Of a DNA stretch of 44,434 nucleotides, positions 1,488 through 24,643 are shown piece after piece. Positions within the stretch are counted from its first letter, which is position 1. Each line of letters starts with the position of its first letter. Below the pieces are notes generated by a model, which worked only from the letters and a program-made list of their open reading frames with translations, searched no databases and was not told the DNA's origin. The DNA lies in NCBI GenBank assembly GCA_016217925.1, contig JACRFK010000004.1, positions 1-44,434 of the forward strand, given 5' to 3'. A program made the position numbers and the translations under genes. Source of the DNA: Candidatus Kaiserbacteria bacterium (GTDB taxonomy: Bacteria; Patescibacteriota; Minisyncoccia; Phycocordibacterales; UBA2100).

Positions 1488-1567
1488 CCCCGTTAGAGGC
1501 TCCAAAAACTGTGTGTATGTGGAAATCTTGAACCTCGAAACCTTATCGGAGGTTGCCTCTAACGGGG
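1488..1567. mobile_element. MITE-like terminal-inverted-repeat (TIR) element, copy 1 (80 bp)
   Basis: Ends CCCCGTTAGAGGC / GCCTCTAACGGGG; TCAA on both flanks (1484-1487, 1568-1571). Confidence 0.7.
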
Positions 1568-1598
1568 TCAAATATTGCCGTGGACAATGAGGGGACAA

Positions 1599-2333
1599 TC
1601 AGGATTTCTTGGTTTTTTTGAGGATTTCAGCCGCCTTTGTGAGGTCTCCCGGAGCATTTATCTGTATCCAATCGGCCGTGAAAATGGGCTCAAGACGTAT
1701 CCCGAGTGCCTTTGCCGCAGCGATGACCGTCTGCGGTAGGCCGTATTCGAGACTCCCCTCTTGTTTTGGCACAAGCGGTTGAGAGAAAAGTCGTGTGTCG
1801 AGCGCGAACATGTTGGTACTCGCGAGTCCGGGTTCCGTCCCCAAATCGCCTTCAATAATCGCGGTTATGTTCGCGTTTTCGTCGAGCTGCACAGCTCCAG
1901 CACGGTGCATTTCGGGCATTTGTTGGACAAGGAGCTTCCATGAGTTCGACTCTTCGGCGCACTGTTTGAGATCTTCCGAGTCGAAAATATCATCACCGTT
2001 CAGCACCAGGAATCTGTCTTTTCCGCCGGAGGCGGATCCGCCTCCGGCGGACAGAACATCCTTGGCAGCCCACAGGGCACCCGCGGTCCCGTTGAGGTCG
2101 CCCTGCTCCACATACGTAAGCGCGCGACCGCGATACGAACCTTTATATTTCTTCTTAATAACATCAGAGAGGTGCCCGATTATCAACACGACTTCCTGTA
2201 TTTCTTCGGGAAGCGCGTCGAGTTTGTGTTCGAGCAACGTTCTGCTATCCACCACGAGCATCGGCTTGGGAACGGCGGTCGTCAATTCTTCCATGCGCGT
2301 ACCGCGCCCTGCGGCGAGAATGACTGCTTGCAT
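1599..2333 (-). CDS. sugar-phosphate nucleotidyltransferase (NTP_transferase family)
   Basis: N-terminal QAVILAAGRGTRM-KPML motif and NGDD motif. Start set at MQAV, 7 nt after TACAAT. Confidence 0.88.
   Translation of the reverse strand: MQAVILAAGRGTRMEELTTAVPKPMLVVDSRTLLEHKLDALPEEIQEVVLIIGHLSDVIKKKYKGSYRGRALTYVEQGDLNGTAGALWAAKDVLSAGGGSASGGKDRFLVLNGDDIFDSEDLKQCAEESNSWKLLVQQMPEMHRAGAVQLDENANITAIIEGDLGTEPGLASTNMFALDTRLFSQPLVPKQEGSLEYGLPQTVIAAAKALGIRLEPIFTADWIQINAPGDLTKAAEILKKTKKS
2022..2051. repeat. 30-nt perfect palindrome (family A) in frame in the nucleotidyltransferase
   Basis: TCCGCCGGAGGCGGATCCGCCTCCGGCGGA is its own reverse complement; encodes SAGGGSASGG. Confidence 0.85.
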
Positions 2334-2355
2334 GAGCACTATTGTAGCAAACGCA

Positions 2356-2384
2356 AAGCGGCCCCGCCGAAGGCGGGGCCGCTT
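2356..2384. terminator. GC-rich hairpin (13-bp stem) downstream of the MscS-like gene
   Basis: AAGCGGCCCCGCC-GAA-GGCGGGGCCGCTT; the core matches the family A half-site. Confidence 0.55.
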
Positions 2385-2402
2385 GAGAACAAAACCGAAA
2401 AC

Positions 2403-3095
2403 CTAATCCCGGTGATGCGCAATCTCCGAACGGATGCGCTCGATCGTGCGAGAAGCGGCTTCTTTGCCGCCCAAGCCGAATGCGAGACCGAATGCGAGTG
2501 AGAGGGCGATCACGAGCCCCGTGAAGAGTGTCTGGATGAACGTGCTTGCGACCTGGAGCTGATCGAGTGCTGCCATGATGGCGAAGATCCAGATGGCCCA
2601 CTTGGCGACCGCGCCAGCGAGATTTGCCGCGTGCGCACCTGCAGCTCGTGCGGAACCACTCACCAACCCTCTTACTACCTCAGCAACAACGGCACCTAGG
2701 ATAAGAATGAGGACCGCTACGATGACCTGCGGCAAGTACCCCAATACCACCTGCTGCAAGAATATCGTGACACGGTTGAGACCGAGAATGTCGAGTGAGG
2801 CGACCAAAAATACCAAAATCATGAACCACATGACCAAGGTGCCGAGGAAGCGCCCGATGTCGAGCGTGAAGCCCGCCTCCTTTGCGGCGTCGTTGAGGCC
2901 CGCCGCCTTGAGTGCGTCGTCGATTCGAAGCACTTTGACCACCTCAACTACGATGCGATACAGAATTACCCCAACTATCCAACCGATCACGAAAACGATG
3001 ACTGCCGCGAGTATCGCCGGCAGGTACTGTGCGACGGTGAACCACAGGCCCGAGAACGAGCTCTGTACCACATCCGCCGATTGCGCAACTATCAT
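2403..3095 (-). CDS. MscS-associated TM-helix repeat membrane protein (CmpX-like)
   Basis: Repeated YLPxI(L/I)xA(V/L)IxxxxG transmembrane units and C-terminal GLAFGLGGKE. Confidence 0.75.
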   Translation of the reverse strand: MIVAQSADVVQSSFSGLWFTVAQYLPAILAAVIVFVIGWIVGVILYRIVVEVVKVLRIDDALKAAGLNDAAKEAGFTLDIGRFLGTLVMWFMILVFLVASLDILGLNRVTIFLQQVVLGYLPQVIVAVLILILGAVVAEVVRGLVSGSARAAGAHAANLAGAVAKWAIWIFAIMAALDQLQVASTFIQTLFTGLVIALSLAFGLAFGLGGKEAASRTIERIRSEIAHHRD

Positions 3096-3279
3096 AAATA
3101 TATGCGTATATTAAGAATAATGTTTATAAAGGATCTTCGACCCCTGTATGGAAGTAATGATACCACCCAGGCACTTCTGTGAAGGGCCGCGGCGAAGCCC
3201 GTGTGGATACCCGCCGGAGGCGGGCGGGCGGAAAAAAGCTATATTTTGAGGCCTCGTTTGCTTCTCTCTCCCTACGGAG

Positions 3280-3903
3280 CTACAACAATCTGTCTTTATC
3301 GAGCAGCACGAGGTGCGGAAAATCGAGGGTATCCCGCATAAGACGGTCTTGAATGGTGAGACGATAGCGGAATTCCGGACCCGAAAAAGCCGCATACCGT
3401 ATCTCACGGCCAAATTGACGTTCAAGTGCACGGATCGCGGTCTCAAGACGCCCTTCGTTCAAGCCGTCTGCTGCGACCAGGAGATCGGCCGGGCGCGACG
3501 GATCCCCCATGAACGACCCCGAGAGCACCACAGCCACAAATCGCCCCGATCCCTTAAGCCCCTTGAGTATGCTGGAGTAATGCACCGGCGAGACTTCGTG
3601 CACGAATTTCGAGAGAGCTACCGAGTGCTTGAATGTGGGGTCGATTGCCCACGCCTCTTTCTTTTGTTTCCCTTCTATTGTGCGGTTGCTGCTATTTCCG
3701 AGTGTAATTACGAATTTCCCGAGCCTCAGTATCCCCAATTTCTCGAGTGCTTTTATCTCTTTCTGTGCCGCCGGCAGCGACACGCCTGCGCGCTTCGCGG
3801 CCAGAGGCGCTGTGAAGACCCCGGACTGGTCGAGAAAAAAGGCGCGGAGAACCTTGGCCCGATTCGTATTACCCATGAAAGTCGCCAAAAAGTCCCCTGC
3901 CAT
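3280..3903 (-). CDS. conserved hypothetical: winged HTH plus nucleotidyltransferase-like C-terminal domain
   Basis: N-terminal helical HTH-like segment and C-terminal VVLSGSF..ADLLV motif. Confidence 0.55.
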   Translation of the reverse strand: MAGDFLATFMGNTNRAKVLRAFFLDQSGVFTAPLAAKRAGVSLPAAQKEIKALEKLGILRLGKFVITLGNSSNRTIEGKQKKEAWAIDPTFKHSVALSKFVHEVSPVHYSSILKGLKGSGRFVAVVLSGSFMGDPSRPADLLVAADGLNEGRLETAIRALERQFGREIRYAAFSGPEFRYRLTIQDRLMRDTLDFPHLVLLDKDRLL

Positions 3904-3954
3904 AGAGGCTCATTATCCCCGTACAGAGACATCAGTCAACTTCGAAAAAACCGG

Positions 3955-4770
3955 CTATTTCCCGCTCTCCGCTATGGCCCTGAAGGTCACAAGTGCCTGG
4001 TGGAGGGCCCGCACATCATGCGTACGTATGTAGTCGGCACCCTGCGTAGCCGCGAACACCTCCGCCGCAAGTGTGCGGCTTTGGATGTCGATGTCAGGAG
4101 ACGGTGCAATGTTGCGCAGGAACGACTTGCGTGAGACCGATATCATCACCGGCAGTCCGAAGTGCTTTTTTAATTCCGCGACATGCGAGAGGACGGCGAG
4201 CGAAGGCTCCGGATTGCTTGCCAGGAAAAATCCCATGCCGGGGTCAATGATAAGGCGCTCGCGCGCGATACCTGCCGCTTCGAGTGCGGGCAACCGGGTC
4301 CCGAAAAATGAATAGATGGAGTCGAAAACTTCCCGCGTGGTTTTCGGGATGCGCACCGCCTTGTCGAGGTCGGAAATAAAATGCATGACAACCAACTGTG
4401 CCCCGGACGCCGCGAGCTCCGGATACAAAGACTCATCGGGAAATCCGCGGATATCGTTAAGATACGCGATGTGTTTTGCCATCCCAAACCGCAAGACTTC
4501 CGGTTTGGTCGCATCAATCGAAACATCAAGGCCCGGCCTTGATATTGCTTCCAATACGGACCGTATCCGTTCGATTTCAACCTCCGCCGGCACGGGTGCG
4601 GAATGCGGATTGCTCGAGGCGCCGCTTATTTCAACGATATCCGCACCTTCCGCAAGAAGTTTATTTGCGTGCTCTATCGCAGCGCCTGATTCAAGATACT
4701 GTCCGCCGTCGGAAAACGAGTCGGCGGTGATGTTGACGATGCCTACTATTTTCGGTCGATGGGCTTTCAT
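3955..4770 (-). CDS. folP: dihydropteroate synthase, Sul-like
   Basis: GIVNITADSFSDGG, DPGMGFFL, SRKSF and IRTHDV motifs. Confidence 0.93.
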   Translation of the reverse strand: MKAHRPKIVGIVNITADSFSDGGQYLESGAAIEHANKLLAEGADIVEISGASSNPHSAPVPAEVEIERIRSVLEAISRPGLDVSIDATKPEVLRFGMAKHIAYLNDIRGFPDESLYPELAASGAQLVVMHFISDLDKAVRIPKTTREVFDSIYSFFGTRLPALEAAGIARERLIIDPGMGFFLASNPEPSLAVLSHVAELKKHFGLPVMISVSRKSFLRNIAPSPDIDIQSRTLAAEVFAATQGADYIRTHDVRALHQALVTFRAIAESGK

Positions 4771-4835
4771 AGAGATAGGATTTTAGCATGGTACCCGCTT
4801 TTTGAGCTTTGCGGATGCCTCTGCTAGTATGCCGT

Positions 4836-5189
4836 ATGGATTACATTCACATTGACGACCTCAGAGTCTCCGGGAATCACGGAGTCAGAGAGGAGGAGCG
4901 GGCGAAGCCCCAAGAGTTCCTCATCTCGATACGCATCGGCGCCGACACGAAAAAAGCGGCATTGAGCGGACAACTTGCTGATACTATCGACTACCACGAC
5001 ACGCTGAAACTTATCGAACACGTATTTGAGAACACGAGCCACAGCCTCCTCGAGACAATAGCCGAGCATATCGCCGCAGAGATACTGAAGGACAAGCGCG
5101 TGAGCTCGGTCGAACTGACCATAAAAAAAACAGGCGTGTGGCGCAACGGCATCCCCGGCGTCACGATCCGCCGGGAGCAGGCCCGATGA
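4836..5189 (+). CDS. folB: dihydroneopterin aldolase
   Basis: GNHGV-EE..PQEF, DTIDY, LLETIAE and LTIKK motifs. Start at MDYI, after TG-C-TAGTAT. Confidence 0.88.
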   Translation: MDYIHIDDLRVSGNHGVREEERAKPQEFLISIRIGADTKKAALSGQLADTIDYHDTLKLIEHVFENTSHSLLETIAEHIAAEILKDKRVSSVELTIKKTGVWRNGIPGVTIRREQAR

Positions 5190-5649: not shown

Positions 5650-5722
5650 GCCCGCATACTAGCGCGTGCTTTTTGTCTCTGCTAGAGTGCCCTCGGCGGT
5701 ATGCGCCATGAGGAGATTGACC

Positions 5723-5977: not shown

Positions 5978-5993
5978 GTTCTGATCAAACCGC

Positions 5994-6126: not shown

Positions 6127-6486
6127 TTACTTCAACGTAACTTTCCCGCCTGCCGCTTCTATCTTTGTCTTCCACGCCTCCGCGTCCTCTTTCTTCACGT
6201 CGGCCTTCATGAGGACCGGCGCGCCTTCAACCATGGTCTTCGCTTCCGAGAGACCGAGGCCCAAGACCTCTTTCACGATCTTAATGACCGCGATTTTCTG
6301 TTCACCGAACGAAGTGAGTTCTACGTTGAACTCCGACTTCTCTTCGGCTGCAGGACCTGCTGCAGGACCGGCGACGGCGACTGCCGCTGCCGAGACTCCC
6401 CACTTCTCTTCGATTGCTTTGACGAGTGTGTTGAGCTCGAGCACTGTCATCTTTTCGACTGCTTCGATGATTTGTTCTTGTGTCAT
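6127..6486 (-). CDS. rplL: 50S ribosomal protein L7/L12
   Basis: [29 protein letters not shown] and AGGKVTLK. Confidence 0.97.
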
Positions 6487-6535: not shown

Positions 6536-7033
6536 TTACGAACTCTTAGTCTCTGCGACTTTACTCAACACGACCGCAAAACGCTGACGCGGTGAGTTGA
6601 TGAGTTGTGCGAACATAGCACGCAACGTCGCCATCCCCGGGATCGTTGCGATCTCCTGCATGTGCGCGGCGTCGACGAGCTTGCCCTCGAAGATGCCTCC
6701 CAGGATAGAGAGCTTGTCGGTAAATTTCTTGCCGAATTCGTGCACAAGCCGCGCCGCGACGGTGGCGTCAGTGCCCCCGCCATATGCGATAGCGACTTCG
6801 CCCTCGAGCGGCAATTCGGCATGCGCATGTCCGAGTTGTTCGAGCGCTCGGCGGATGAGCGTCTTCTTCGCGACAAAGTACGAGACACCGTCCGCGCGAA
6901 GAGCACGGCGCATCGCCGACTCGTCAGACACGGAGAATTTCGTAAAGTGCACGAAGACCGACGACGCGCCCGTCTTGAACGCCTCGGCGAGCTTATCGAC
7001 TATTACACCCTTCTCTGCTTTTGTTTTTGCCAT
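6536..7033 (-). CDS. rplJ: 50S ribosomal protein L10
   Basis: KAEK..IV..L, VAKKTLIRRA and upstream position relative to rplL. Confidence 0.95.
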   Translation of the reverse strand: MAKTKAEKGVIVDKLAEAFKTGASSVFVHFTKFSVSDESAMRRALRADGVSYFVAKKTLIRRALEQLGHAHAELPLEGEVAIAYGGGTDATVAARLVHEFGKKFTDKLSILGGIFEGKLVDAAHMQEIATIPGMATLRAMFAQLINSPRQRFAVVLSKVAETKSS

Positions 7034-7138
7034 CTTAGATTTTGTTACGAGCAAAGCGAGTTACTAAATCTTAGATCCCGTGAGATGGCGAAGCCTATCT
7101 CTCTGGGATTGTTCGACCAACAAGGTTGAGGAGTTCGA

Positions 7139-7170
7139 GCCCATTAGAGACGCTACGCGCTCTAACGGGC
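7139..7170. repeat. short hairpin sharing the TIR-family ends
   Basis: GCCCATTAGAG-ACGCTACGCG-CTCTAACGGGC; no flanking duplication. Confidence 0.65.
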
Positions 7171-7171
7171 C

Positions 7172-7248
7172 GTGCCTCGGCAGGCGTCTTACGACTTGAA
7201 TCCCGCTCTTTCACTGGAAAGGGCGGGAACCCGCTTTCTCTGGCCTTG
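7172..7248 (-). promoter_or_regulatory. probable L10 leader (rplJ autoregulatory RNA)
   Basis: Minus strand AGAGAAAGCGGG...TTCAAG...CCTGCCGAGG resembles the kink-turn core of L10 leaders and lies in the expected position. Confidence 0.5.
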
Positions 7249-7256
7249 TGCGGTGC

Positions 7257-7284
7257 ATAGTACAGGATTTAAGCCACGCGTCAA
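7257..7284 (-). promoter_or_regulatory. promoter for rplJ-rplL
   Basis: TTGACG (7284-7279), 16-nt spacer, TACTAT (7262-7257). Confidence 0.6.
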
Positions 7285-7350
7285 CCCCGTTAGAAATTGC
7301 GCCCACGCTTGCGCGCCCTAATGGGCTGGGGCGGGCTATTTCTAACGGAG
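7285..7350. mobile_element. MITE-like TIR element, copy 2 (66 bp)
   Basis: CCCCGTTAGAAAT / ATTTCTAACGGAG; TCAA on both flanks. Confidence 0.7.
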
Positions 7351-7458
7351 TCAAATTGACATATTTGTCAAATATGCTATGGTTTCCGGCGGGAAGGCGT
7401 CAAAATAAGTGGACGGAGCTCCTCAGTTGTGTCAATCACAATTGAGAGGTAATCGACC

Positions 7459-7680
7459 ATGATTCCTGATACACCGGCAAGCGAAGTAATCGAGCACTGC
7501 AAGAGGCGTTACGGGCACGATGCGTTGTTCCAAAAGGTAATGCTCGACCAAGTCGAGCGGCTCCTGAAAGGAAAACGCGCACTGTTCCTCGAGAAGCCCG
7601 AATGCAGGGACCTCGGTGAAGAAGTCTTATGGATCTGCTTCAGCAAGAAGGCAGTCCTCGCTTCGCCATTGCAACGGTGA
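7459..7680 (+). CDS. hypothetical protein (73 aa)
   Basis: GAGGT SD before the ATG; upstream TTGACA (7356) and TATGGT (7378). Confidence 0.5.
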   Translation: MIPDTPASEVIEHCKRRYGHDALFQKVMLDQVERLLKGKRALFLEKPECRDLGEEVLWICFSKKAVLASPLQR

Positions 7681-7768
7681 CGGGAAAGACGTCAAAAACA
7701 GTTCACCATGCGTCGCGCCGGGCCCTTCGGGACCCGGCGCAAGTTCTATTCAAAGGAGCGGCAGGAAA

Positions 7769-8050
7769 ATGGGCGAATGTTTGAAACGTATTGAAGGGAG
7801 GAAACTCCTCGAGGCGTCGAAAAATGACGCAGAAAACGCAAAGGCCGTGATAGAAATCAGAGGTGGCCTGATGAGCAACGCCTTCTGCCGGATTATCGAG
7901 GAGGCGCGTACGTGTACTTTCGAACGACTCGAAAGCCTCGTGGCAAATCTGCATCCGGATAACAAGAAGTTGCTCAGGGGGATAACCCTGGAAACCGGAC
8001 TGGCGTTTTGGAACCCGAAGAAGCGGCGTGAATTCCGGTTCTGGGAATGA
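7769..8050 (+). CDS. hypothetical protein (93 aa)
   Basis: AGGAG/AGGA upstream of the ATG; charged helical composition. Confidence 0.5.
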   Translation: MGECLKRIEGRKLLEASKNDAENAKAVIEIRGGLMSNAFCRIIEEARTCTFERLESLVANLHPDNKKLLRGITLETGLAFWNPKKRREFRFWE

Positions 8051-8098
8051 CTCAAGGGCGGGCGAACCGCGCAGCGCCGGACTTCATTGCCCGGCGTT

Positions 8099-8266
8099 TT
8101 ATTTTACCTGCTTGAGCATTGCTGCGGCCGCAGCGGCCTGTTGCTGTTGTGCGTCCTGCCCCGATGCGTATTTCTGTACCGCGTATGTCACTCCGAAGCT
8201 TATCGAAATGAGCAGCGTAAAGCCGAAGAAAAAGCGTGCAAACGAGTTTACCGGCGACAGAGCCAT
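8099..8266 (-). CDS. small single-TM protein (55 aa), absent from the ORF track
   Basis: Hand translation gives MALSPVNSFARFFFGFTLLISISFGVTYAVQKYASGQDAQQQQAAAAAAMLKQVK; TATAAT 7 nt before the ATG. Confidence 0.7.
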   Translation of the reverse strand: MALSPVNSFARFFFGFTLLISISFGVTYAVQKYASGQDAQQQQAAAAAAMLKQVK

Positions 8267-8391
8267 AACCTATATTATACGCCTTGTATTTAGAAGTACT
8301 TCTTCATCGGTTCCAACGAGGGCATCTTGCCAAGGGTTTGTGTGATGAGGGGGAGAAGGAGAAAGCCCGAGAAGGCTCGGATCATGTACTT

Positions 8392-8604
8392 TTAGAGTGA
8401 GTACCCGAGCAAAGAAAGTAGGATGGAGAATAAATAAGGTGCAGCGAGGTAACCTATAGTGCCAAAAAACACGCTGAGAATCAAAGAGTTGACTGTGTTG
8501 ACTTTGATACCGAACCTAGCTACCAAGAAAACTATAGAGAAGACCACTATAAAACATGCGTATCCAAAATTCACTAAGAATTCCCCCAATCCTATATCAT
8601 CCAT
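8392..8604 (-). CDS. small hydrophobic membrane protein (70 aa)
   Basis: Two TM-like segments; starts 3 nt after the lipase stop. Confidence 0.55.
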   Translation of the reverse strand: MDDIGLGEFLVNFGYACFIVVFSIVFLVARFGIKVNTVNSLILSVFFGTIGYLAAPYLFSILLSLLGYSL

Positions 8605-8607
8605 ATA

Positions 8608-11019
8608 TCAGTGGTTAATTAACCAATTTATATCCGCCGCCAATAATTCATATGCTTGCTGGTTAATAATACCAGTCTTTTTGACGCCGTTGAGTATGCT
8701 GAGCATGGATTTGTATATGCTGTTTTTATTACCTGGTCTTTTTTGCTGCTGCGCCAACGTAAGTAACGTGCTGAGCGACGTTTTGATGCCGGCAGATTTT
8801 ATCCATCCCAGAGAGAATGCGCGATTAATGTCGCTTTGAGTGCTGTTCGCCGTCGCTATCACCTGGATTACCCTCTCTGAAGTCGTGGCGTTATTTACGA
8901 GATCCATTGCATAGGCAGAGATCGTGTGGTTACCGAGTGTTTGAAAGAAAAGGTCGGTCGTAGAGCTTGCCGCAACGGTCGTTGTGTCAAAGGCAACACT
9001 GGATGAAGCAACTCCGGTCGCATCACTAAAGATGGCGCGTATCGGCAGCTTCTCCGAATGCGTGTAAGTCGCTGATGTAGGTTGAACAATGGTGATGGTT
9101 GGAGGAGTCTGGTCAACGGGCGCAATGGTAGTCTGATTTGGTTGGTCTGGATTCACGTCAACGCTAAGCTCGGTTATCAAATCCGGTAGCGTTTGTCCGG
9201 TAAAGAACGTTTCGCTCGAAGTTGCATTGCCGATCACTCCTGTGGCGATTGTATAAGAACCGCCGTTGCCGGTGCCCTGTGTGATGATTTTGTATACACC
9301 GTCGAGTGGATTAGGGATAGTTATGTATTCCTCATCGGTCCCAAAACCGGAGTAAAAAGCGTCGGGAATTTGATTGAACTCGTCTCCGGTGGCAAAGTTC
9401 TTCCCGACCTTCAGACCATCAGGCGCGACGACGACAATGTCAGCCGGAGAAAGGATTTGGAAGATAAGTACATTCTTCAATGTTTCTGCCAACCCGTGAT
9501 TATTGTTAACAAGCGTTGCCGCGTCGTTGCCTGTGAGTTTCTTAAATACCATACCTTCTGTCTTGGTGGGTAATTCGTTATGTTCCGAACTAGTGATTTG
9601 TAGATCGCTGATAACCAAAGCCGCGGAAGACAACGGCACAGTGCCGTCACCGGCTCCGCGCTCTAGCCCCTGATCAGTTGAACTATCGCCAAATCTCTCC
9701 GGCTTGCCGAGTCCCCACAGGGCTACAGGGTTGACGACGGTTGGTGGAACAACACGGATGGTTGTAATTGTTGTGTCATCAGCGGTCTGACCAACGAAGT
9801 TCGAAATCGTTACCCCAGAATTGTAGAGTTCAGTAACATTGTTGTTCAAATCAGAAAGGAAGAGGTTGTTGGGATACCAAGCTGAATTCGGAAACGAAGG
9901 AATGTTAGACGAGCCGACGTGTTTGATATATCCGTAGACGGGTAGTAATTCTTGGACAGAAGGGACGGGAAAGTTACGTTCGTAGTCGAATAGCTTTGAA
10001 TAACCATGTTTACGCGCTTCAATCCTGAGAAAGGTTAATAGCTGTTGATCGCCAGCGTCAGTGTCTGCTTCTCCCCCCTCCCACATCAAATAAGCTTTCG
10101 GTGCACCTAGGTGTGGCGTACCGAGGAATATTAGTTTCCGGACATCGTGCTCATAGTCATTCGACTGAATATATTGTCTTGCGACGAGACCTCCCATCGA
10201 GTGGGCTACTATATCGACTTTGTCACACCCACAAATAGTTTTGACCTCATCTATTTTCTGCTTCAAAAGAAACGCCGTTTCTCTATTGGACACGCGCCAC
10301 TCATAGGGAAACGGGAAAAGCGTTACACCCTTCTCATACCCATTCGCATCGAGAGTATCAATAAGGTTGTCATATGCATGCGTGATAGGGTCGATGAGCC
10401 ACTCCCCGTTGTGCTGAGCAGATCCGAGGATCCCAGGAATAATGACAACGGGTGTGTACGCGGTTGGAGCGCTTGCGTCGGTGACGGTAAAGCGAATGGT
10501 TTCTATGTAGTCTTCGGCAGATTGCGCATACGCGGTCTCACCAAACACAAAATGCAAAAAGGTATTGAAGGGATTCCTATTCACCTGAGATGCTCGTTCT
10601 TGGTACACGTCGAGCTCATAGACTCCCGGCTGCTCCCAGATGAACGTTTGCGCACCGGAAAATCCCCCAATCGGTCCTATGAGTTCTCTTGTTTGCGATT
10701 GCTCTTGTTTGAGTACGCGGTACAAAACACCGCTCACACTGAAAGAAACTCCGGATTCGCTGTGAGCAACGTAGACATCCTTCGAGACGTGGAGTGGAAC
10801 AGGGTACGTTCCGCCATCTTCCATAAATGTGAGTCTGGCCGAAATAAGCTCGCCTGTATTGTCATCAAATATCATGTCGCCCCACACAAGCTGCGAGGTA
10901 TCCGCATTGGATGTCCTGGGTGTCGCGAGAAGGAGGAGTGTGGCGGCCGACGCGGCCAAGAATATTGCCGTGCCGTGCATGTGAGGCGGCCAAACACTCG
11001 ACCTCGGAGCGTTTTGCAT
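8608..11019 (-). CDS. secreted alpha/beta-hydrolase (LCAT/PGAP1-like lipase or acyltransferase) with C-terminal Ig-like/helical domains
   Basis: Signal-like N-terminus, PVVIIPGILGS, FPYEWR, VAHSMGGL nucleophile elbow, LGTPHLGAP and GDGTVP. Confidence 0.85.
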   Translation of the reverse strand: MQNAPRSSVWPPHMHGTAIFLAASAATLLLLATPRTSNADTSQLVWGDMIFDDNTGELISARLTFMEDGGTYPVPLHVSKDVYVAHSESGVSFSVSGVLYRVLKQEQSQTRELIGPIGGFSGAQTFIWEQPGVYELDVYQERASQVNRNPFNTFLHFVFGETAYAQSAEDYIETIRFTVTDASAPTAYTPVVIIPGILGSAQHNGEWLIDPITHAYDNLIDTLDANGYEKGVTLFPFPYEWRVSNRETAFLLKQKIDEVKTICGCDKVDIVAHSMGGLVARQYIQSNDYEHDVRKLIFLGTPHLGAPKAYLMWEGGEADTDAGDQQLLTFLRIEARKHGYSKLFDYERNFPVPSVQELLPVYGYIKHVGSSNIPSFPNSAWYPNNLFLSDLNNNVTELYNSGVTISNFVGQTADDTTITTIRVVPPTVVNPVALWGLGKPERFGDSSTDQGLERGAGDGTVPLSSAALVISDLQITSSEHNELPTKTEGMVFKKLTGNDAATLVNNNHGLAETLKNVLIFQILSPADIVVVAPDGLKVGKNFATGDEFNQIPDAFYSGFGTDEEYITIPNPLDGVYKIITQGTGNGGSYTIATGVIGNATSSETFFTGQTLPDLITELSVDVNPDQPNQTTIAPVDQTPPTITIVQPTSATYTHSEKLPIRAIFSDATGVASSSVAFDTTTVAASSTTDLFFQTLGNHTISAYAMDLVNNATTSERVIQVIATANSTQSDINRAFSLGWIKSAGIKTSLSTLLTLAQQQKRPGNKNSIYKSMLSILNGVKKTGIINQQAYELLAADINWLINH

Positions 11020-11118: not shown

Positions 11119-11949
11119 TTACGGATGCGAATTTACGTATGCTCGCGTCAGGGCTCCGAAGAAGCCAGACGCAGGTTTGATACCCGCGGCCTTCTGGAGC
11201 TTGATGAGCGCTGCTTTCGTCGCTCCACCGAATTTCGATGTCTCGTTGCCCGGCGAGCCTGGGCCGCTTGATGCGACAACGTAGCCGTGAGTATTGAGAT
11301 ACACCTGGAGTGCTTTCACATCAGCGCCCGTGGAGCCGACTTGCAGACTGCGGCTAAAGCCCGCGCCTGTAGCCGGTGCCACCCCACCCTGCAAGGCCTG
11401 CAGCTGTGCCACAAGAGAGGCGAGCAGAGCTTGGAGTGAAGCAATGGTCGGGGTCGCGGGTGTTGCAGGCGTAGCTGGAGTTGCTGGCGTGGCAGGCGTA
11501 GCCGGGGTTGCTGGTGTGGCCGGAGTTGCCGGAGTTGAGCCGCCTCCTCCGCCACCTCCGCCGCCACCTCCGCCGTGTCCGCCGACATCCAAATTACAAA
11601 GCGCACCGTCTGGGGTTACCGTGACAGTTAACGCTCCCGTCGCCGTGTAGGAGAGAGTGGACTGCGCGCTCGTGCAAACGTTTGATGAGTAGGTAGTCGA
11701 ATCGGGACTTAAGATATTCCGGTTGGGTGCCGTCAACGCGATAGAGGAACCGTCTGCGAGCGTGAAGCTAAAAGTGGTCGCCCCCACTGTAATCGATTCT
11801 ACAACCGCGGTTGTGCCCGAGACGTTGATTGTGATGCCGTTGACGCTAATGACCGTGTCGGTCGTCAGGCTGACGTCGTCGGCCGCGGCGAACGTAAGCG
11901 CCGGGACGAGGAACGCGACCGCCGATCCGATTGCAATTAGTTTTCTCAT
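11119..11949 (-). CDS. secreted protein with poly-Gly/(TPA)n linker and C-terminal peptidoglycan-binding domain
   Basis: Signal peptide, G-run, TPA repeats, FSRSLQVGSTGADVKALQVYLN and FGGATKAAL. Confidence 0.8.
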   Translation of the reverse strand: MRKLIAIGSAVAFLVPALTFAAADDVSLTTDTVISVNGITINVSGTTAVVESITVGATTFSFTLADGSSIALTAPNRNILSPDSTTYSSNVCTSAQSTLSYTATGALTVTVTPDGALCNLDVGGHGGGGGGGGGGGGSTPATPATPATPATPATPATPATPATPATPTIASLQALLASLVAQLQALQGGVAPATGAGFSRSLQVGSTGADVKALQVYLNTHGYVVASSGPGSPGNETSKFGGATKAALIKLQKAAGIKPASGFFGALTRAYVNSHP

Positions 11950-15029: not shown

Positions 15030-15722
15030 TTACTCCACTGAGGCAGCGAGGTCGGCTTCGGCTTGCTGTATCGCATCGGTGTCCTCAGGCATGTGTGCCT
15101 TGAGGAACTCAAGACGCGCGCGAATGTATTGCGAGGTCGTCTGCGCAGCGATCATGCGGTCGTATGCGACTCGCGCGCTCTTGTAGGCGCCGAGTCGTTC
15201 GAGCAGCTTTCCCATGTTGTGCCACGCAAGCCCGGTCTTCGTAGAATCTATCGCGAGCGCATAATTCAGATAGGTGAATTCTTTTCCACCATCGCCGAGC
15301 AGTTCATATTGATTGGCGATGCTCACGTAGAGCTCGTAGTTGGTGTGCGCTCCGGAATTGATAAGACCTTTCAATCGAGTTATATCCGCGCGCACGCTCG
15401 CCTCAAGCTGTCCGCTGTCTTTATGTGTACCTGCAAAATCCCATGAGGCTACAACGTCTCCCGGCACAAGGGAAAATACCGATGGAAACGCTACGGGCGG
15501 TGTCGCTTTCTGTTTTGTAATGGGAGAGGTCTGTGAAGTGGAGCTGGAAGGGGTCGCGGTTGTCTCTGCCGAGGAAGTTGAGGCCGTTCCCGGTAGAGGC
15601 AGGGACGGTGAGGCACTCTCCTTCGCCCCCAATGTCCCAATAACACCGATGGCGATAAGCACGGCAATACCTGCATAGATTCCATACTCTCTCTTCACCC
15701 CGTTAGAAGCTTCATTCATCAT
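15030..15722 (-). CDS. membrane-anchored protein with TPR-like C-terminus
   Basis: N-terminal TM, S/T-rich linker, AWHNMGKLLERLG TPR-like motif. The start region overlaps TIR copy 3. Confidence 0.7.
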   Translation of the reverse strand: MMNEASNGVKREYGIYAGIAVLIAIGVIGTLGAKESASPSLPLPGTASTSSAETTATPSSSTSQTSPITKQKATPPVAFPSVFSLVPGDVVASWDFAGTHKDSGQLEASVRADITRLKGLINSGAHTNYELYVSIANQYELLGDGGKEFTYLNYALAIDSTKTGLAWHNMGKLLERLGAYKSARVAYDRMIAAQTTSQYIRARLEFLKAHMPEDTDAIQQAEADLAASVE

Positions 15723-15790
15723 AAGAAATATTTATTGTGAGTAACTAAAGAAGTTGCGGCGTGATAATCTCCAGCTGGCTTCTAACGGGG
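15698..15790. mobile_element. MITE-like TIR element, copy 3 (93 bp)
   Basis: CCCCGTTAGAAGC / GCTTCTAACGGGG; TTCA on both flanks. Confidence 0.72.
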
Positions 15791-15810
15791 TTCATATGCG
15801 AAAGAGTGTA

Positions 15811-15870
15811 CCCCATTAGATAACCAAGGTCGAGCTCGTCGTGACAAGCATAAATTTCTACCTCACGGGG
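15811..15870. mobile_element. degenerate TIR element, copy 4 (60 bp)
   Basis: CCCCATTAGA / CCTCACGGGG; TGTA on both flanks. Confidence 0.5.
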
Positions 15871-15942
15871 TGTACTCCATGAGATACCTACAGTCGAGCG
15901 TGACTGTCTACAAAGCGCGTTGCGCTATATACTCATCGGTAT

Positions 15943-16389: not shown

Positions 16390-16390
16390 T

Positions 16391-19287: not shown

Positions 19288-22200
19288 TTAGAAGTTGACC
19301 GACTTGTTGCCGATCGTGAGTGGAAGCGTTCTTACCAGGTAATCACCCGTCCAGTCAGAGGTCGAAGCTCCCGTTGCACTCGAAGAGTGATCGGCGAGAT
19401 CAGACCAGTCAGACCATGCGAATGAAGCTGCGGTGCTCACACCTTGCGTACCAGCGGCTGATCCGAAGACAGCAGTCGAAGACGCTGTCGTTTGCGGATT
19501 GGCGATGGATGCACTGATGTTGTTCGCACCGGACGCGATACCGCCGACGGTTCCACGAAGCTCGTATGTCTTCGAGGTGCCTGCGTCAACCGTCTCGACG
19601 GTCGTCGGACGGAAGTGGACCAAACACGTTGTCTGATTCAGACAAGCGTCGAGAGTTCCGAGGTCAGTCGCGACAACTGTCGTTGTTGCCATGGTACCTG
19701 CAATCTGGTTGGCACCACTCCATACTGCGAGAGTGGTTGTCGCACCAACGGTGACAGCTGCAGTCTTGTTGAGGGTGATGACCACAGAGCCCCAATCGAT
19801 CTTACCTGCCGCATCAGCCGTGACGGTGAAGCGTCCGAGGACCTGGTTGGATCCTGCGTTGAGCGTCGCCGCGGCGGAATTGTCAGTCGAGAGGACCGGT
19901 TTGGACTTGCGGACGTACATCGTACCCTTGCCGCTTGTGGCTGCACCGTTGAGGTTCGCGTAGGAAGCCATCGTTGTCGATGCTGTGCCTGCGCTATCCA
20001 CTGCCTTGAAGCCTGTGATCCAGCTGAGGTATGCCGAGATTGCTGTACCGGACGTGGCACCGTTCGCGACTGTCGGAATGTTGACGTAGACATCAATGGT
20101 CTGCGTCTCATTCATCGGAATAGCGAAGGTGAGACCGGTGAAGGTCGCCGTCGAGTACACCTGCGTCCCCGAAGAGAGCGAAAGTGCCTGCGAGACACCT
20201 GCCGTATTGCCCGGCCACTTGAGGGTGACGGACGAGACGGATGTCGCGGCGTTTGCCGGAATAAGGACCGCAAGCTCTTGGACCGTGAAGCCAGAGTTGG
20301 ACGCTGTGAAGTTGAAGGAACCGACTTTTACGTCGTTGCTACCTGCAATGACGTTTGCATTGTCAGGCGATGTTCCTGTCGACTGTGTGAGCGAGCCCGT
20401 ACCGACCGTGATGGTCTGGAGGTTGACATCGTTGCCGGTGTCAGCAGTTCCGTTGGTATCGAGCGTGACCGAGTTGCTCGTCATGATGCCGAGACCGCCC
20501 GTCGTTTCATCCAACGTAGCGATCCACGTACCGATGTTCGAGCCGGACTTGATGTTACCGACAAGGTCGATAGTCTTGGTCGATGAGACCGGGATATCGA
20601 AGTTGACGGAGAACGTGTTGTCCGTCGAAGGCGAAGGCTTCGCCGTTCCGATCTGTGCACCCGTCGCAGAATCAACGAGGCGGAGGTCCGTGATGGATGC
20701 CGCTTCGTCAGCTGAGAGGTTGACAACGATCGTGTTTACGTTCACGCCTTCCGTCGAACCCGACGAGAGAGTGAACGAGCCGAGACGAGCGTTGCTCGTA
20801 CCAGCGATGATGGTCTGATTGCCGTACCCTGAGTACTTCGTCGCTGTGAGTGTCGCAGACGAGATAGTGAGGGTGTTGCCTGCCACATCCGAACCCGGTA
20901 CGCTCACCGAAGTGAGAGAGACCTGGCCGAACGCGTTTGAAGAACCATCGTCAAGCGTGATTGCTACTGTCTGACCGGAGGTCAAAGCTGTACCAGTCGA
21001 GCTCTTCGCATCTGCGTAGATGTCGATGATGTGTACCGCTCCCGCCTTCGCGATGAAGGAAGAACCGAAGGTGAATTCAATGTCCGTACCATCAGTCAAG
21101 TCCTTGGTAGAACCGACCTGTACGCCATCGACGAATACTTTACCGTTGTCGAGACCAGCCTGCGCGCCAGCCGATGTGTCGGCGTTGACGTTGAGGGACT
21201 CGATCTTCACGTCTTCACCCGATGCACGGAGCTCGAAGGACGCGAACTTTTGGTTCGACGCTCCGAGTGTGATGTTCGAGGAAGGCGAGGTGTTCGCTTT
21301 CACGACCGAGACGGCAGCCGAGCCGATCGTCTGTACGCCCGAGGAGCGTGCAGAGAAGGCTGAGCCAGCCGCAGTCGCAAGTATCGGTTGGTTGAGCTCG
21401 GTGTCGATGAAGCGAGCGTCTGCCGCGCGACGAAGCGAGAACTGCATCGTGAGGCTTGAGCCACCGACGACGTCACCGACGACCTTGATGGTTCGTCCGC
21501 CCGATTCGAGGCGTTTTGGTGTTGCCGTGAGGTCCCATGCGACAGAAGTTTCTCCTGCCACGAGGTTCGGTACGGCCTGGCCGACTTGGACACCGTCTAC
21601 GTAGAGACGGAGATTCCTGACGTCGTTAAGACCGATAGAACCGAGGTTGCGGAGCTGGAACGAGGTCAGATTGACCGCGCGCGTGCCGATAGTCGCCACG
21701 TTCTGCCAGACCACGACGTCGTTTGCTGGCGTCAGGTTTGTGTTCGTTCCCGGGGTTGTGCCGGAAGCGAAGTCGACCGTTGCGAGAGTCGCCGAAGAGA
21801 CCAAGAGCGCTGAGCCCGTGATCGGAAGGACGACAGACGAGTCGAGAAGACCGGACGCGCTGACGCTCGTGAGCTGGACGCCGACCTGTTGGCCGTTCGT
21901 CGAGCCTGCGATGTCTGAGCGGACGGAGATCGTGATCATGCCGCCGGCCGGTACCGTGAAGAGACCGGACGGAGCGTTGAAGTTGAACGCCGTGTTGCTG
22001 ACCCCTGCGGAATCAGTAAGACGCGTTGCCCCATTGAAGAGGTAGACGTTGGCGAGCGTCGAATCAGATGACACGCCGATGCGCTTGAACGCAAGGTTCG
22101 TGACAGTGATCGGAGCGCCTGTCGGGTTCGAGAAGGTGAACTTCGCGAGTTCCGCGATGGCCTGTCCTTGGACGAGCGCGCCGTACGTCGGGTTGTCCGC

Positions 22201-22725
22201 AGCGAGCGCGACCTTGAGGCCGTTGCCCGTTACTGGAGTGCCCGGAATTCCGGGTGTACCCGGTGTGCCTGCGCACATCGAGTTCGCCTTTGCTCGGGTC
22301 ATCGGACCCCAGATGCCGACCGGCGAGATGCCGTTGGCAGACTGGAACTTCGAGACCGCAGCACTTGTCTTTGCGCCGAAGTACGACGTTTCATTGCCCG
22401 GAGAGCCAGCGCCTGTTGCGGCAATCTGAGCCCCGTGAGTGTTAAGGAATTTTTGTACCGCCATCACTTCACCTCCAGACTTACCGACTGAAAGGTTCTG
22501 CGTGAAGGTCGCGCAGCTTGCGCCGGCCGTAGACGAGCCGCCCTGCAATGCTGCGATTTGTGCCATCAACGACGCGATCTGTGCTTGGAGATCAGAAAGC
22601 GTGTCCGCTTTTGCCGGAGTGGCAAACGAGAACGCGAATCCGAAGACCAAAGCAACAGCAACGACGATTGCGGCAACATTTTTTGTTGCTAATGCTTTAC
22701 TCATAGTTAATTTTGACTTTTTCAT
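19288..22725 (-). CDS. large secreted S-layer-like surface protein with N-terminal peptidoglycan-binding domain
   Basis: Signal peptide, coiled-coil, FTQNLSVG..GGEVMAVQKFLN, YFGAKTSAAV and long Thr/Ser/Ala-rich beta repeats. Alternative start 22704. Confidence 0.82.
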   Translation of the reverse strand: MKKSKLTMSKALATKNVAAIVVAVALVFGFAFSFATPAKADTLSDLQAQIASLMAQIAALQGGSSTAGASCATFTQNLSVGKSGGEVMAVQKFLNTHGAQIAATGAGSPGNETSYFGAKTSAAVSKFQSANGISPVGIWGPMTRAKANSMCAGTPGTPGIPGTPVTGNGLKVALAADNPTYGALVQGQAIAELAKFTFSNPTGAPITVTNLAFKRIGVSSDSTLANVYLFNGATRLTDSAGVSNTAFNFNAPSGLFTVPAGGMITISVRSDIAGSTNGQQVGVQLTSVSASGLLDSSVVLPITGSALLVSSATLATVDFASGTTPGTNTNLTPANDVVVWQNVATIGTRAVNLTSFQLRNLGSIGLNDVRNLRLYVDGVQVGQAVPNLVAGETSVAWDLTATPKRLESGGRTIKVVGDVVGGSSLTMQFSLRRAADARFIDTELNQPILATAAGSAFSARSSGVQTIGSAAVSVVKANTSPSSNITLGASNQKFASFELRASGEDVKIESLNVNADTSAGAQAGLDNGKVFVDGVQVGSTKDLTDGTDIEFTFGSSFIAKAGAVHIIDIYADAKSSTGTALTSGQTVAITLDDGSSNAFGQVSLTSVSVPGSDVAGNTLTISSATLTATKYSGYGNQTIIAGTSNARLGSFTLSSGSTEGVNVNTIVVNLSADEAASITDLRLVDSATGAQIGTAKPSPSTDNTFSVNFDIPVSSTKTIDLVGNIKSGSNIGTWIATLDETTGGLGIMTSNSVTLDTNGTADTGNDVNLQTITVGTGSLTQSTGTSPDNANVIAGSNDVKVGSFNFTASNSGFTVQELAVLIPANAATSVSSVTLKWPGNTAGVSQALSLSSGTQVYSTATFTGLTFAIPMNETQTIDVYVNIPTVANGATSGTAISAYLSWITGFKAVDSAGTASTTMASYANLNGAATSGKGTMYVRKSKPVLSTDNSAAATLNAGSNQVLGRFTVTADAAGKIDWGSVVITLNKTAAVTVGATTTLAVWSGANQIAGTMATTTVVATDLGTLDACLNQTTCLVHFRPTTVETVDAGTSKTYELRGTVGGIASGANNISASIANPQTTASSTAVFGSAAGTQGVSTAASFAWSDWSDLADHSSSATGASTSDWTGDYLVRTLPLTIGNKSVNF

Positions 22726-23254
22726 CCAGCACCACTTTTGCGCTTCGAACTCTGGTGACTTTGATACGCTGAACGTATGCGTTCAATCATTTCAAAACCC
22801 TAAAGCTCAACCTGCAAAAGTGGTGCTGGACCGTACACTCCACCCTTTCGACGAGGAGTCGTGTACGTTGTGTGCCTTCTGCTAAATAAATAACTGATAA
22901 CTGAAGACAACTAATAATTTGGTCTCTGCCCACCAACGTGGTAGGAAAAACCCCGAACATTTGCTAGCCCTTCCACCGCCAAGATGACGGGACCAGGATT
23001 AGCAGCGAGGAGTGAGTGGAATTTCAGTCATGCAATCGTTACCGGACAAGATCAGGATATTCAGTAACACGTCTCAGAATTTTATGTATCCGAGAAGCGG
23101 GCCATAAACGGCCTGTTATTTTTCTCTATTCAAATGTCAACGAACTGCACAGAGGACACTCGCCCTCATGCGCCTACACGACATCCTATGGGGATGCCGT
23201 CGCACAATTATATACTAGGGACCATGCTGCACATGAATGCACCGCTCCCCCGTT

Positions 23255-23263
23255 TGTGGATAA
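23255..23263 (-). promoter_or_regulatory. DnaA-box consensus TTATCCACA
   Basis: Single perfect 9-mer in a long intergenic region. Confidence 0.35.
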
Positions 23264-23474
23264 CTTGTGGCTACAAAAAGCCTTCGTCTCGCGACGAATG
23301 GGCGTTTTATGAACACTCGCTATCGCCCGCCACAATACCCTAGTGCTCTAAGGGAGTCAATTGAGTAGACGACTCATATGCGCTTATCTTTCAGGTCACA
23401 CCATGCGTGACGGGGCGATGAAGGAATTACGGGGCTTTATCGCGTATTCAAGTGTGGATTAAGACACGAAATCT

Positions 23475-24221
23475 CTAAATGACAATGGAGTACTTACTCC
23501 AACGCTTAAGGCCTGTTTTTCTGACCCTACCGGACCCTACGAGAGTGACGAGATGGCGTTGTATCATTTTTTCACTGTATTCGGGCAAATTAAAGGCGAT
23601 GTCACGAATCCCAAGCTCCCCGCCAGCACGCAATACAGAAACAATGCGCTCCTCTCGGACGTTTGAGCTGCGTCTGTCTGATATCTTATCGGACATTGTT
23701 GGTGTGTCCTTTACGACCATCTTGTCCTTTACGGCAACAATGTCCTTTACAAATTTTTCATCGATATCCAGTGGACCGTCTTTTGAAAGGGCGAATGTCT
23801 CTGACGACGGCGAGCTCTGGGACACGCTCAAGAAGTTACCAAGCTCGTCGAGACCCTCGATCATAGTGTTTGTGTTCTGTAGGGAGAGAAAGCCGCCAAC
23901 GGCAAGCACACGCACAAGGGATATCAAATGTCGTATTGATGCCCGACTTAATACGACTTTTTGCGAGTCGGTCCTCATCTCATCGCGCAAAGCAAGGATG
24001 CTTCCGAGCATTTTGACGGCCTCTTCGCGAACGGAGACCCTGATGGCCTCTCTCGCCTCTATATGGTTTGTTACCAAAAAGAGTGCGGCAACAAGGCGCT
24101 CGGCACGGCTATACGCCCTATCAGCCGACTGGTTAGCCCCAAAAGGACTGGTACGTACCGTCTGTTTATCAAAATAACGAAATAGAGGATTCGACTTCTG
24201 TATGTCTCTTTTGTCGTCCAT
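23475..24221 (-). CDS. conserved hypothetical: helical N-domain plus C-terminal DeoR-like winged HTH
   Basis: C-terminal REERIVSVL..GELGIRDI..YSEKMIQRHL..LV..GRV.KTG.KRWSKY. Confidence 0.7.
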   Translation of the reverse strand: MDDKRDIQKSNPLFRYFDKQTVRTSPFGANQSADRAYSRAERLVAALFLVTNHIEAREAIRVSVREEAVKMLGSILALRDEMRTDSQKVVLSRASIRHLISLVRVLAVGGFLSLQNTNTMIEGLDELGNFLSVSQSSPSSETFALSKDGPLDIDEKFVKDIVAVKDKMVVKDTPTMSDKISDRRSSNVREERIVSVLRAGGELGIRDIAFNLPEYSEKMIQRHLVTLVGSGRVRKTGLKRWSKYSIVI

Positions 24222-24432
24222 TATATGTCCGTAGTATGTACTAGGAGCGTAAAGTACAGGGGACGTCTGTGAGTATATAAAGGACGTAGAAACTTCGCAA
24301 TCCCCACCCACGGTCCATTTCCCAGGCCAACTTCCAGGCCGACTCTCCGAGTGTTTCGAGCATCGGGTGAGTTCCCCTGTCCCCGTAGCATGTAAGTACT
24401 AGTTTGTAACATGTCGCTCCGAAGCGAGATGA

Positions 24433-24511
24433 CCCCGTTAGAAGTTAAGGAATATTCGACTTTGCAGCCGACTAATTTTTTGAAGCATTTTTGTCGTCAC
24501 TTCTAACGGGG
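24433..24511. mobile_element. MITE-like TIR element, copy 5 (79 bp)
   Basis: CCCCGTTAGAAGT / ACTTCTAACGGGG; TGA on both flanks (3 bp only). Confidence 0.65.
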
Positions 24512-24531
24512 TGATATGATGTCACCATGAA

Positions 24532-24643
24532 TCCCGTTAGAAATCGCGGACACGCGAAGTCGAATTTCTCAATAGGGTACGTTATTGGCGATAACCGAAT
24601 GGGGTGGGCCGCTTTGATAGGCCGCGTCCTATTTCTAACGGGA
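24532..24643. mobile_element. MITE-like TIR element, copy 6 (112 bp)
   Basis: TCCCGTTAGAAAT / ATTTCTAACGGGA; TGAA on both flanks. Confidence 0.72.

Follow-up and report, generated by a model that had tools for sequence, protein, structure and literature searches.

The 44,434-nucleotide stretch of DNA considered here (positions 1 to 44,434 of contig JACRFK010000004.1, assembly GCA_016217925.1, from a Candidatus Kaiserbacteria bacterium; called the window in what follows) carries six short elements with shared inverted-repeat ends, which we number #1 to #6 in the order of their positions. Direct duplications on their flanks, together with the corresponding empty sites in related Kaiserbacteria, show these elements to be mobile DNA that duplicates 4 bp of its target on insertion. 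In our assessment they are probably miniature, non-autonomous DNA transposons, moved in trans by a putative IS1380/piggyBac-like DDE transposase, and their placement on promoter boxes and start codons would mainly reflect survivorship. The family to which they belong is apparently undescribed: a cross-phylum MITE (miniature inverted-repeat transposable element) family with invariant ends, free interiors and insertion sites at which the interrupted signal is rebuilt.

All six elements have ends of the form (C/T)CCCGTTAGA…TCTAACGGG(G/A), and five of them are flanked by 4-bp duplications while element #5 has one of 3 bp (Table 1). A direct check finds the elements, their coordinates, ends and duplications as a first-pass annotation of the sequence had given them. 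The match between the two ends is imperfect in places, with one mismatch in the right arm of element #2 (…ACGGAG) and about 9 of 13 positions matched in the arms of element #4. The paired pattern CCGTTAGA-N30-60-TCTAACGG is found at three places in the window and never in shuffled sequence (0.00 over 100 shuffles), and the 9-mer, with at most one mismatch, occurs 18 times where 8.5 are expected, a number reached in no shuffle. The interiors of the six elements are mutually unrelated in pairwise comparison; that of element #2 has clear relatives, a 65-71-nt subfamily, in six other genomes. The window elements are not assembly artefacts, since an independent Logan assembly matches the window sequence at 100% identity and a recorded 217-kb contig encodes an identical ftsK product. 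The named relatives of two proteins belong nearly without exception to Candidatus Kaiserbacteria, within the Patescibacteria or CPR.

Evidence for insertion comes from a related species (GCA_964592945.1 and ERZ27247837), whose lipase is 81% identical in amino acids and whose ftsK is 85% identical in nucleotides to that of the window. It is syntenic with the window, is without all six elements and has at each site exactly one copy of the duplicated bases. The first-pass annotation had staked its reading on empty, single-copy sites at orthologous loci, and they are found for six of six elements. In the sequence L123, the site of element #3 reads ATGAAGAAAG and exactly 64 bp are absent at element #4, where a single TACA stands. 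The site of element #5 reads GAGATGATATGAT in L133 and is likewise empty in three more Kaiserbacteria (L136, L138 and L140); element #6 is absent from these four sequences too, whereas L134 and L135 (ftsK 84% nucleotide identity) have it at the site it occupies in the window. About 100 kb of related Kaiserbacteria sequence holds zero copies. The window elements are insertions, or they excise precisely.

Where, then, have these insertions landed? Element #1 sits on the TTGA of the -35 box of the 23S rRNA promoter and element #2 on the TTGA of the -35 box of the rplJL promoter, both on the minus strand. Element #3 follows the ATGAA start of a minus-strand gene of 229 aa, the start being rebuilt as GTG (15698..15696), and element #4 lies in the TACACT -10 box of the promoter of this same gene. 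Element #5 lies in the TG(A) of the extended -10 sequence of the leaderless ftsK promoter, and element #6 follows the ftsK ATGAA, so that the ATG is rebuilt at 24643-24645 while the old ATG (24527) now opens a frame of 39 codons whose TGA overlaps the new ATG. This assignment of the six sites to two -35 boxes, a -10 box, an extended -10 and two ATGAA starts agrees with the earlier annotation, and a promoter consensus scan concurs for #1, #2 and #5: it places the two -35 promoters directly against elements #1 and #2, and a TG-extended TATGAT ending at 24520, just past element #5. Five further Kaiserbacteria (L133, L134, L136, L138, L140) have kept the arrangement TG-n-TATGAT-GTC(A/T)(C/T)C-ATGAAAGC upstream of ftsK, and ftsK in Kaiserbacteria appears to be leaderless. 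The "start codon" sites of the window are largely transcription starts of leaderless genes; therefore all six window copies are located within -35 to +5 of four promoters. A -10 box is also seen 6-9 nt before the ATG in several other element-hit genes (L033, L087, L103).

We turn to the family as it occurs in other genomes. An exact search for CCCCGTTAGA-N45-75-TCTAACGGGG, with one genome per species and perfect CCCC…GGGG ends required, gives at least 119 genome loci with paired ends, against about 17 expected by chance (596 Gb x 31 spacings / 4^20). Element ends are carried by at least six phylum-level groups. Among 80 titles from these loci, 36 belong to Patescibacteria of many classes, 14 to Planctomycetota, 12 are Deltaproteobacteria-type, 4 are Omnitrophota, 2 Nitrospirae-type, 2 Gammaproteobacteria and 1 KSB1, and the rest are named only as unclassified "bacterium". 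With the ends relaxed, 146 copies are collected; the sequence covered is about 65 kb of the source genome (the window and overlapping assemblies) and fragments of other genomes. Many unrelated genomes share these ends, 4-bp duplications and landing positions with the window. Only two viral contigs carry the pattern, and a plasmid collection gives no match to a 95-nt copy. Rfam has no match at the gathering threshold for the window, nor at E<=1 for the window and the eight loci with the best-folding copies, and searches of a literature library on the end motif in a transposition context, on MITE with IS1380, and on MITEs in CPR (Candidate Phyla Radiation)/Patescibacteria return incidental matches only.

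A perfect 4-bp duplication flanks 80 of the 146 copies, where chance would give 1 in 256, and 66 of these 80 duplications have the form T-N-N-A. The commonest are TAAA/TTTA (32), TGAA/TTCA (14) and TCAA/TTGA (12), and TTAA is absent among the 80. The terminal inverted repeat is 13 bp long, and its first 10 bp, CCCCGTTAGA, are invariant. Positions 11-13 vary between copies (AAT, AGT, AAG, GAA, GAC and others), even within one genome, and are still complementary between the two arms of a copy, as had been noticed for the window: across 80 copies, positions 11, 12 and 13 pair in 99%, 94% and 79%, and from position 14 onward pairing is about 25%, the chance level. Copy length ranges from 29 to 141 bp, the minimal copies of 29-40 nt being two arms and a 3-10-nt loop with flanking duplications (L029 2207-2236, L121 3962-3990). 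The interiors of 147 copies fall into 117 clusters. Unrelated interiors are thus the norm, and the earlier remark that they are unlike a classic MITE needs amending in that ordinary multi-copy subfamilies exist too in some genomes (L011 with L080, L009 with L044), including near-identical copies in one Jorgensenbacteria genome (L011, L080). Some copies are arranged head to tail, 4 nt apart, or nested in the arm of another copy at GTTAG|A (L011 2942-3105; L005 2596-2760; L049 2334-2438).

The landing sites in this larger collection are classified with simple rules of our own, in which a gene is an open reading frame (ORF) of at least 80 codons and a promoter requires at least 4 of 6 matches per hexamer. 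Non-coding DNA makes up about 11% of the genomes surveyed. At 9 of the 12 copies with a TTGA duplication, the sequence reads TTGAC(A/C/G), then 16-18 nt, then TAnnnT; the duplication is followed by C in 10 of these 12 and in 20 of the 32 copies with TTTA. Start codons are hit by 16 copies (original codon ATG in 14, GTG in 2), with an upstream frame that is open for a few codons only. The start is rebuilt as GTG from the last base of the element and a TG, or as ATG in the T…A-ended copies #6 and L083, and leads into ORFs of 80 to more than 500 codons. A universal coupling through the upstream frame is rejected for these sites, since only 7 of the 16 frames extend through the whole element, a non-significant number. 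In ten copies the duplicated bases are a TAA-A, TGA-A or TGA-G at the close of an ORF of 80 codons or more (3.8% at control sites), and five of these ten lie in a stop/start overlap of the ATGA type (ATGA/GTGA), where the stop survives in the left-hand duplicate and the start is restored by the right-hand one.

Five further copies, in four genomes, are inserted at GG|TTTA|C in type IV pilin-like genes, in frame and free of stops. They read leader-G-FTPLE…(22-35 aa)…LTG|FT(L/I/M)(I/V)EL, so that the glycine-phenylalanine cleavage site is rebuilt beside the hydrophobic helix; PilB and PilC genes adjoin these copies, and the N-methylation motif after the insert is a weak match (E = 0.001, below the Pfam cut-off). 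Eight copies are in frame and open within long ORFs. In the whole collection, 72 of 146 copies have a length that becomes a multiple of three when 4 is added (p = 5e-5). Of the 80 copies with a perfect duplication, about 35-45 lie outside all the classified signals, or 46 if the stop-codon and in-frame classes are left out of the classification. The bias towards expression signals that the first-pass annotation had proposed from the window therefore recurs across phyla, and has to be widened in that stop codons, ATGA overlaps, prepilin sites and in-frame coding sites share the pattern.

Table 1. Elements, promoters and genes of the window, with the empty sites found in related Kaiserbacteria.
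Feature	Position	Strand	Ends or sequence	Flanking duplication	Empty site
Element #1, 80 bp	1488..1567		CCCCGTTAGAGGC…GCCTCTAACGGGG	TCAA at 1484-1487 and 1568-1571	…AAAATTTGACATAGGG… (L124; single TTGA)
Element #2, 66 bp	7285..7350		CCCCGTTAGAAAT…ATTTCTAACGGAG	TCAA at 7281-7284 and 7351-7354	…GTCAATTTGACGCGTGGC… (L123 and L124)
Element #3, 93 bp	15698..15790			TTCA (minus strand TGAA) at 15694-15697 and 15791-15794	…GGGGTACACTCTTTCGCATATGAAGAAAG… (L123; covers #4 and #3)
Element #4, 60 bp	15811..15870		degenerate arms CCCCATTAGATAA…CTACCTCACGGGG	TGTA (minus strand TACA)	as for #3
Element #5, 79 bp	24433..24511			TGA (3 bp)	…GTGAGATGATATGATGTCATCATGAAAGC… (L133; covers #5 and #6)
Element #6, 112 bp	24532..24643		outermost pair T…A, not C…G	TGAA at 24528-24531 and 24644-24647	as for #5
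Probable mini copy, 32 nt, degenerate ends, within rplJ leader	7139..7170		GCCCATTAGAG…CTCTAACGGGC	no clean duplication	
Possible old degenerate copy, rplJ leader (by resemblance alone)	7068..7102		hairpin ATCCCGTGAGAT…ATCTCTCTGGGAT		
23S rRNA promoter	1487..1459	minus	TTGACA-17-TATACT		
rplJL promoter	7284..7257	minus	TTGACG-16-TACTAT		
Strong divergent promoter	7356-7383	plus	TTGACA-16-TG-TATGGT		
ftsK core promoter and leaderless start	24512..24529	plus	TGATATGAT, 6 nt, ATG		
23S rRNA gene (window begins inside it)	1-1086	minus			
rplL	6127-6486	minus			
rplJ	6536-7054	minus			
rplJ leader	7055-7280				
Large secreted/cell-surface-type protein	11119-11949	minus			
Large secreted/cell-surface-type protein	19288-22725	minus			
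ftsK	24643 to 26880				

Some further features of the window touch the elements or their neighbours. The right half of element #4 (…GTCACGACGAGCTCGACCTTGGTTATCTAATGGGG|TACA) resembles the native promoter sequence directly upstream (…GTCACGCTCGACTGTAGGTATCTCATGGAG|TACA; 15811-15905, minus strand), and the empty L123 allele at this site likewise ends in a sequence like the terminal inverted repeat, ATCTCATGGGG|TACA. The idea that interiors are copied from flanking DNA is rejected, the similarity to a copy's own flanks being 19.3 against 17.9 in controls, with copy #4 as an exception. Element #2 lies between two back-to-back promoters, because the divergent promoter begins two bases past its right duplication. 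The rplJ leader is long and, compared with the leader of the relative, has extra hairpins that resemble decayed mini copies; it gives no Rfam match to an L10 leader at E<=1. The 23S rRNA promoter is located about 390 nt upstream of the gene, which directly follows a nucleotidyl-transferase gene, and the rRNA genes are unlinked, as no 16S gene lies upstream of the 23S gene (window 1-1600). No tRNA genes are detected in the window. One of the two surface-type proteins has a Gly run, (PAT)n repeats and a peptidoglycan-binding-like C-terminus, typical of the CPR surface proteome.

No transposase is found in the window, as the first-pass annotation had stated, and none adjoins any of the approximately 140 copies. 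Among the 119 loci, end pairs 0.14-4.5 kb apart enclose no transposase in a search that is far from exhaustive, and these long pairs are rejected as a parent element, since they enclose genes for an MFS transporter, a glycosidase, OmpA, a thioredoxin, a ComF-like protein and a sigma factor. Solo ends and intermediate sizes reveal no parent element either. Genes found repeatedly in the neighbourhood of copies encode PilB, PilC, ABC ATPases and tRNA synthetases, and not transposases. Two larger arrangements are of interest. In L009, an inverted intergenic duplication of about 325 bp (2046-2369 and 4832-5155), with one 94-nt copy per arm, brackets the gene of a secreted protein of 686 aa, and is rejected as a parent on account of this enclosed gene. 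The IMG/VR contig L121 has a Mu-like transposable prophage (6739-10077), with a MuA-type transposase and an AAA+ MuB/TniB-like ATPase, and carries several element copies and half-sites, including the 29-nt mini copy; this transposase is rejected as the mobiliser because its ends are of the wrong type and its duplication is 5 bp. To sample the IS1380 family, metagenomic loci are collected with ISEcp1, an IS1247-like element and a Lactobacillus IS1380 as seeds, and are biased toward ISEcp1-like and IS1247-like sequences. A flanking inverted repeat with at least 13 of 18 matches is present in 61 of these loci. About 27 of the repeats clearly begin with CC(C/T)(G/A), CCCG being the commonest form, and there are hints of short A/T-rich duplications in some flanks.

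The comparison with known systems places the element among MITEs. With bacterial MITEs it shares a length of tens to about 140 bp, the absence of coding capacity and of a transposase of its own, terminal inverted repeats, a duplication of fixed length, presence or absence between relatives and, in some genomes, nested copies and multi-copy subfamilies, the six window copies being mutually unrelated; what differs is that ten end bases are invariant across at least six phylum-level groups, that sizes go down to 29 nt, that interiors are mostly unrelated even within one genome and that no parent insertion sequence is found. In size, inverted repeats, duplication and empty sites the element is thus a MITE, one for which no autonomous parent is found. 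IS1380 elements duplicate 4-5 bp of target (ISfinder tables). The ends of the IS1380/piggyBac group begin CC(C)(G) and finish …GGG-3', where our element begins (C/T)CCCG, and both have a 4-bp duplication flanked by T and A and a short inverted repeat of about 13 bp. PiggyBac ends begin CCC (CCCTT or CCCTC), and the duplication is TTAA with the variants TAAA and TCAA (PMC10813416); for piggyBac, IS1380 serves as the prokaryotic outgroup. Unlike these, the ends of our element match no IS1380 member examined beyond CCCG, and its 80 perfect duplications lack TTAA. Precise excision in the manner of piggyBac is compatible with the patchy distribution of element #6.

Other small repeats share single features with the family. 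The Rickettsia palindromic elements are small palindromic repeats that invade non-coding and protein-coding DNA with the reading frame intact (PMC1166351). Like the present family they are tolerated inside genes of compact genomes, but they form families of about 100-150 bp confined to Rickettsia and are without this end sequence, whereas the present family extends over many phyla and occupies promoter boxes and start and stop codons as well. The Rickettsia elements are not known to make a regular 4-bp duplication. In the Correia elements of Neisseria and in hybrid promoters of insertion sequences, the end of a small inverted-repeat element and the duplicated target bases form or preserve promoter hexamers; Correia elements, however, duplicate TA and bring promoter parts of their own, while here it is simply the native -35 box that is doubled and retained, and the element ends bear no relation to theirs. 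Integron attC sites measure roughly 57-141 nt and share with the element this size range, imperfect palindromes, a conserved stem foot, an interior that is free and at times branched, and the GTTRRR and YYYAAC motifs. The element is nevertheless rejected as an attC site, with its reversed motif order, solitary copies among housekeeping genes, variable 4-bp duplications and no integrase gene nearby. Mobilisation of the REP/REPIN (RAYT) or IS200/IS605 type is rejected as well, because those systems have no target duplication, a GTAG-type head and an HUH Y1 enzyme; the duplication here is a regular 4 bp, and no Y1 transposase is seen in the flanks of the elements.

These observations are best accommodated, we think, by the following mechanism. 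A transposase supplied in trans would cut its target with a 4-bp stagger, usually at T-N-N-A, with the result that 4 bp are duplicated. It would be a DDE enzyme, given that ends of CCCG…/…CGGG-3' and a 4-bp duplication flanked by A/T fit the IS1380/piggyBac branch best. Duplication of TTGA(CA), (A)TGAA, TAAA or GG|TTTA|C would leave one intact signal next to the gene, and the terminal G of the element would serve as the first base of GTG or as the third base of a Gly codon. Insertions elsewhere in these very gene-dense genomes would break something and be lost, and within reading frames the stop-free copies with length + 4 a multiple of three would be kept. Survivorship in compact genomes, with their abutting genes and leaderless promoters, is the best account of the positional pattern, because another explanation is hard to find for the stop codons, the ATGA overlaps, the prepilin site and the lengths that favour multiples of three. 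The earlier proposal of a non-autonomous mobile element with either target bias or selection is in this respect supported by the empty sites, the duplications and the recurrence across genomes.

Several observations weigh against this reading, and they are also the ones from which the alternatives draw. Pure survivorship does not obviously predict an excess of promoters, because insertion into an inert spacer should be tolerated no less readily, yet a promoter is found at 9 of 12 TTGA-duplication copies, where the remaining non-coding TTGA sites give 14.9% (p = 5e-6), an over-representation of about five-fold. The clustering of all six window copies around four promoters is a second such point. 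The bias could instead be present at insertion, if the transposase or a partner were directed to core-promoter or gene-boundary DNA, by DNA that is bound by RNA polymerase, melted or bent, or by motifs such as TTGAC, TTTAC or ATGAA. The promoter excess, the window copies and the preference for C after TTGA and TTTA duplications speak for this active targeting, as does the ftsK promoter, which has been hit twice separately. So does element #6, of which a second species has an almost identical 112-nt copy after the corresponding ATGAA, the nearest species to the window in terms of ftsK identity (85%) being empty at this site. But the stop-codon, in-frame coding and prepilin sites are not promoters and follow the same logic of a kept signal, many copies lie at no classified signal, the multiple-of-three lengths are a signature of selection, and no protein candidate is found. 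We regard active targeting as doubtful, though a contender. The assignment of the enzyme has weaknesses of its own: the CCCG likeness to IS1380/piggyBac extends over only 4-5 bases, CCCCGTTAGA stands at the ends of 0 of 80 metagenomic IS1380-family loci, and the proposed check for an insertion sequence or transposase with the same ends finds none in the 119 genome loci or these 80.

A purely double-stranded mechanism also requires neither the covariation of positions 11-13 nor the Y-shaped fold that some interiors keep with different sequences. Both would follow if the element were recognised and moved as single-stranded DNA (or RNA) folded into a hairpin or three-way junction, in the way of attC or IS200/IS605 ends, for then only the base of the stem and the fold would matter, which would account for free interiors and matched arms. 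The minimal copies, just two arms and a small loop, suit this idea, and so does the 65-nt subclass, in which a 13-bp stem carries two perfect hairpins with unrelated stem sequences and interior z of -4 to -6; a single fixed secondary structure for this class is rejected, as the hairpin registers differ in a MAFFT alignment. However, a constant 4-bp duplication of variable sequence marks a staggered double-strand cut, the known attC, IS200/IS605 and IS91 reactions make no such duplication, and the order GTTAGA…TCTAAC is the reverse of that in attC (RYYYAAC…GTTRRRY). Moreover, most interiors, five of the six in the window included, fold like shuffles (median z -0.6, 19% below -2), and we judge a folded single-strand mechanism improbable. 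Element #6 raises another matter. Its orthologous copy in L134 (9890-10001) is identical at 108 of 112 positions (96%) where the adjacent ftsK is at 84%, the four substitutions keeping the 39-codon upstream frame open, and such identity is odd for a neutral passenger; the pattern of this element fits recent spread, repeated insertion, precise loss or constraint. The copies might also be kept as modules that are useful to the host, as insulation against read-through, in tuning leaderless translation via the upstream frame, or by lengthening signal peptides. The conservation of element #6, its intact frame, ending in ATGA in both species, and the perfect GC-rich hairpins that abut promoters favour such a use, but close relatives manage with none of the six, the copies are found in either orientation and in very different contexts, the interiors share nothing and no T-run follows the stems; host utility thus seems to us very improbable. 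Rather unlikely, in our estimate, is a composite of these ideas: a "signal-sparing" mobile hairpin that passes through a folded single-strand stage and is either steered to promoters and gene boundaries or equipped with signal-rebuilding ends. Such ends would consist of …CGGGG with the 4-bp T-N-N-A duplication, which together would rebuild -35 boxes, start and stop codons and prepilin sites, and we hold this part to be no likelier.

The genomes of CPR bacteria are tiny, tightly packed and usually thought to be poor in mobile DNA, and here six copies stand in 25 kb, inside the promoters of 23S rRNA, rplJL and ftsK, and copies also lie between overlapping genes. The family points to a transposase of unusually conserved end specificity, possibly a prokaryotic relative of piggyBac, and to the way in which a 4-bp duplication can render an insertion into a signal harmless. 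If the "signal-sparing" hairpin were true, one element type would have been able to colonise bacterial genomes of the most compact kind in at least six phyla, by a mode of transposition and targeting without a described counterpart. The copies shift gene starts and add N-terminal or signal-peptide extensions, and can in this way mislead gene callers and promoter predictions in metagenome-assembled genomes. They also provide a natural set of filled and empty promoters, and of leaderless start sites, in uncultured bacteria.

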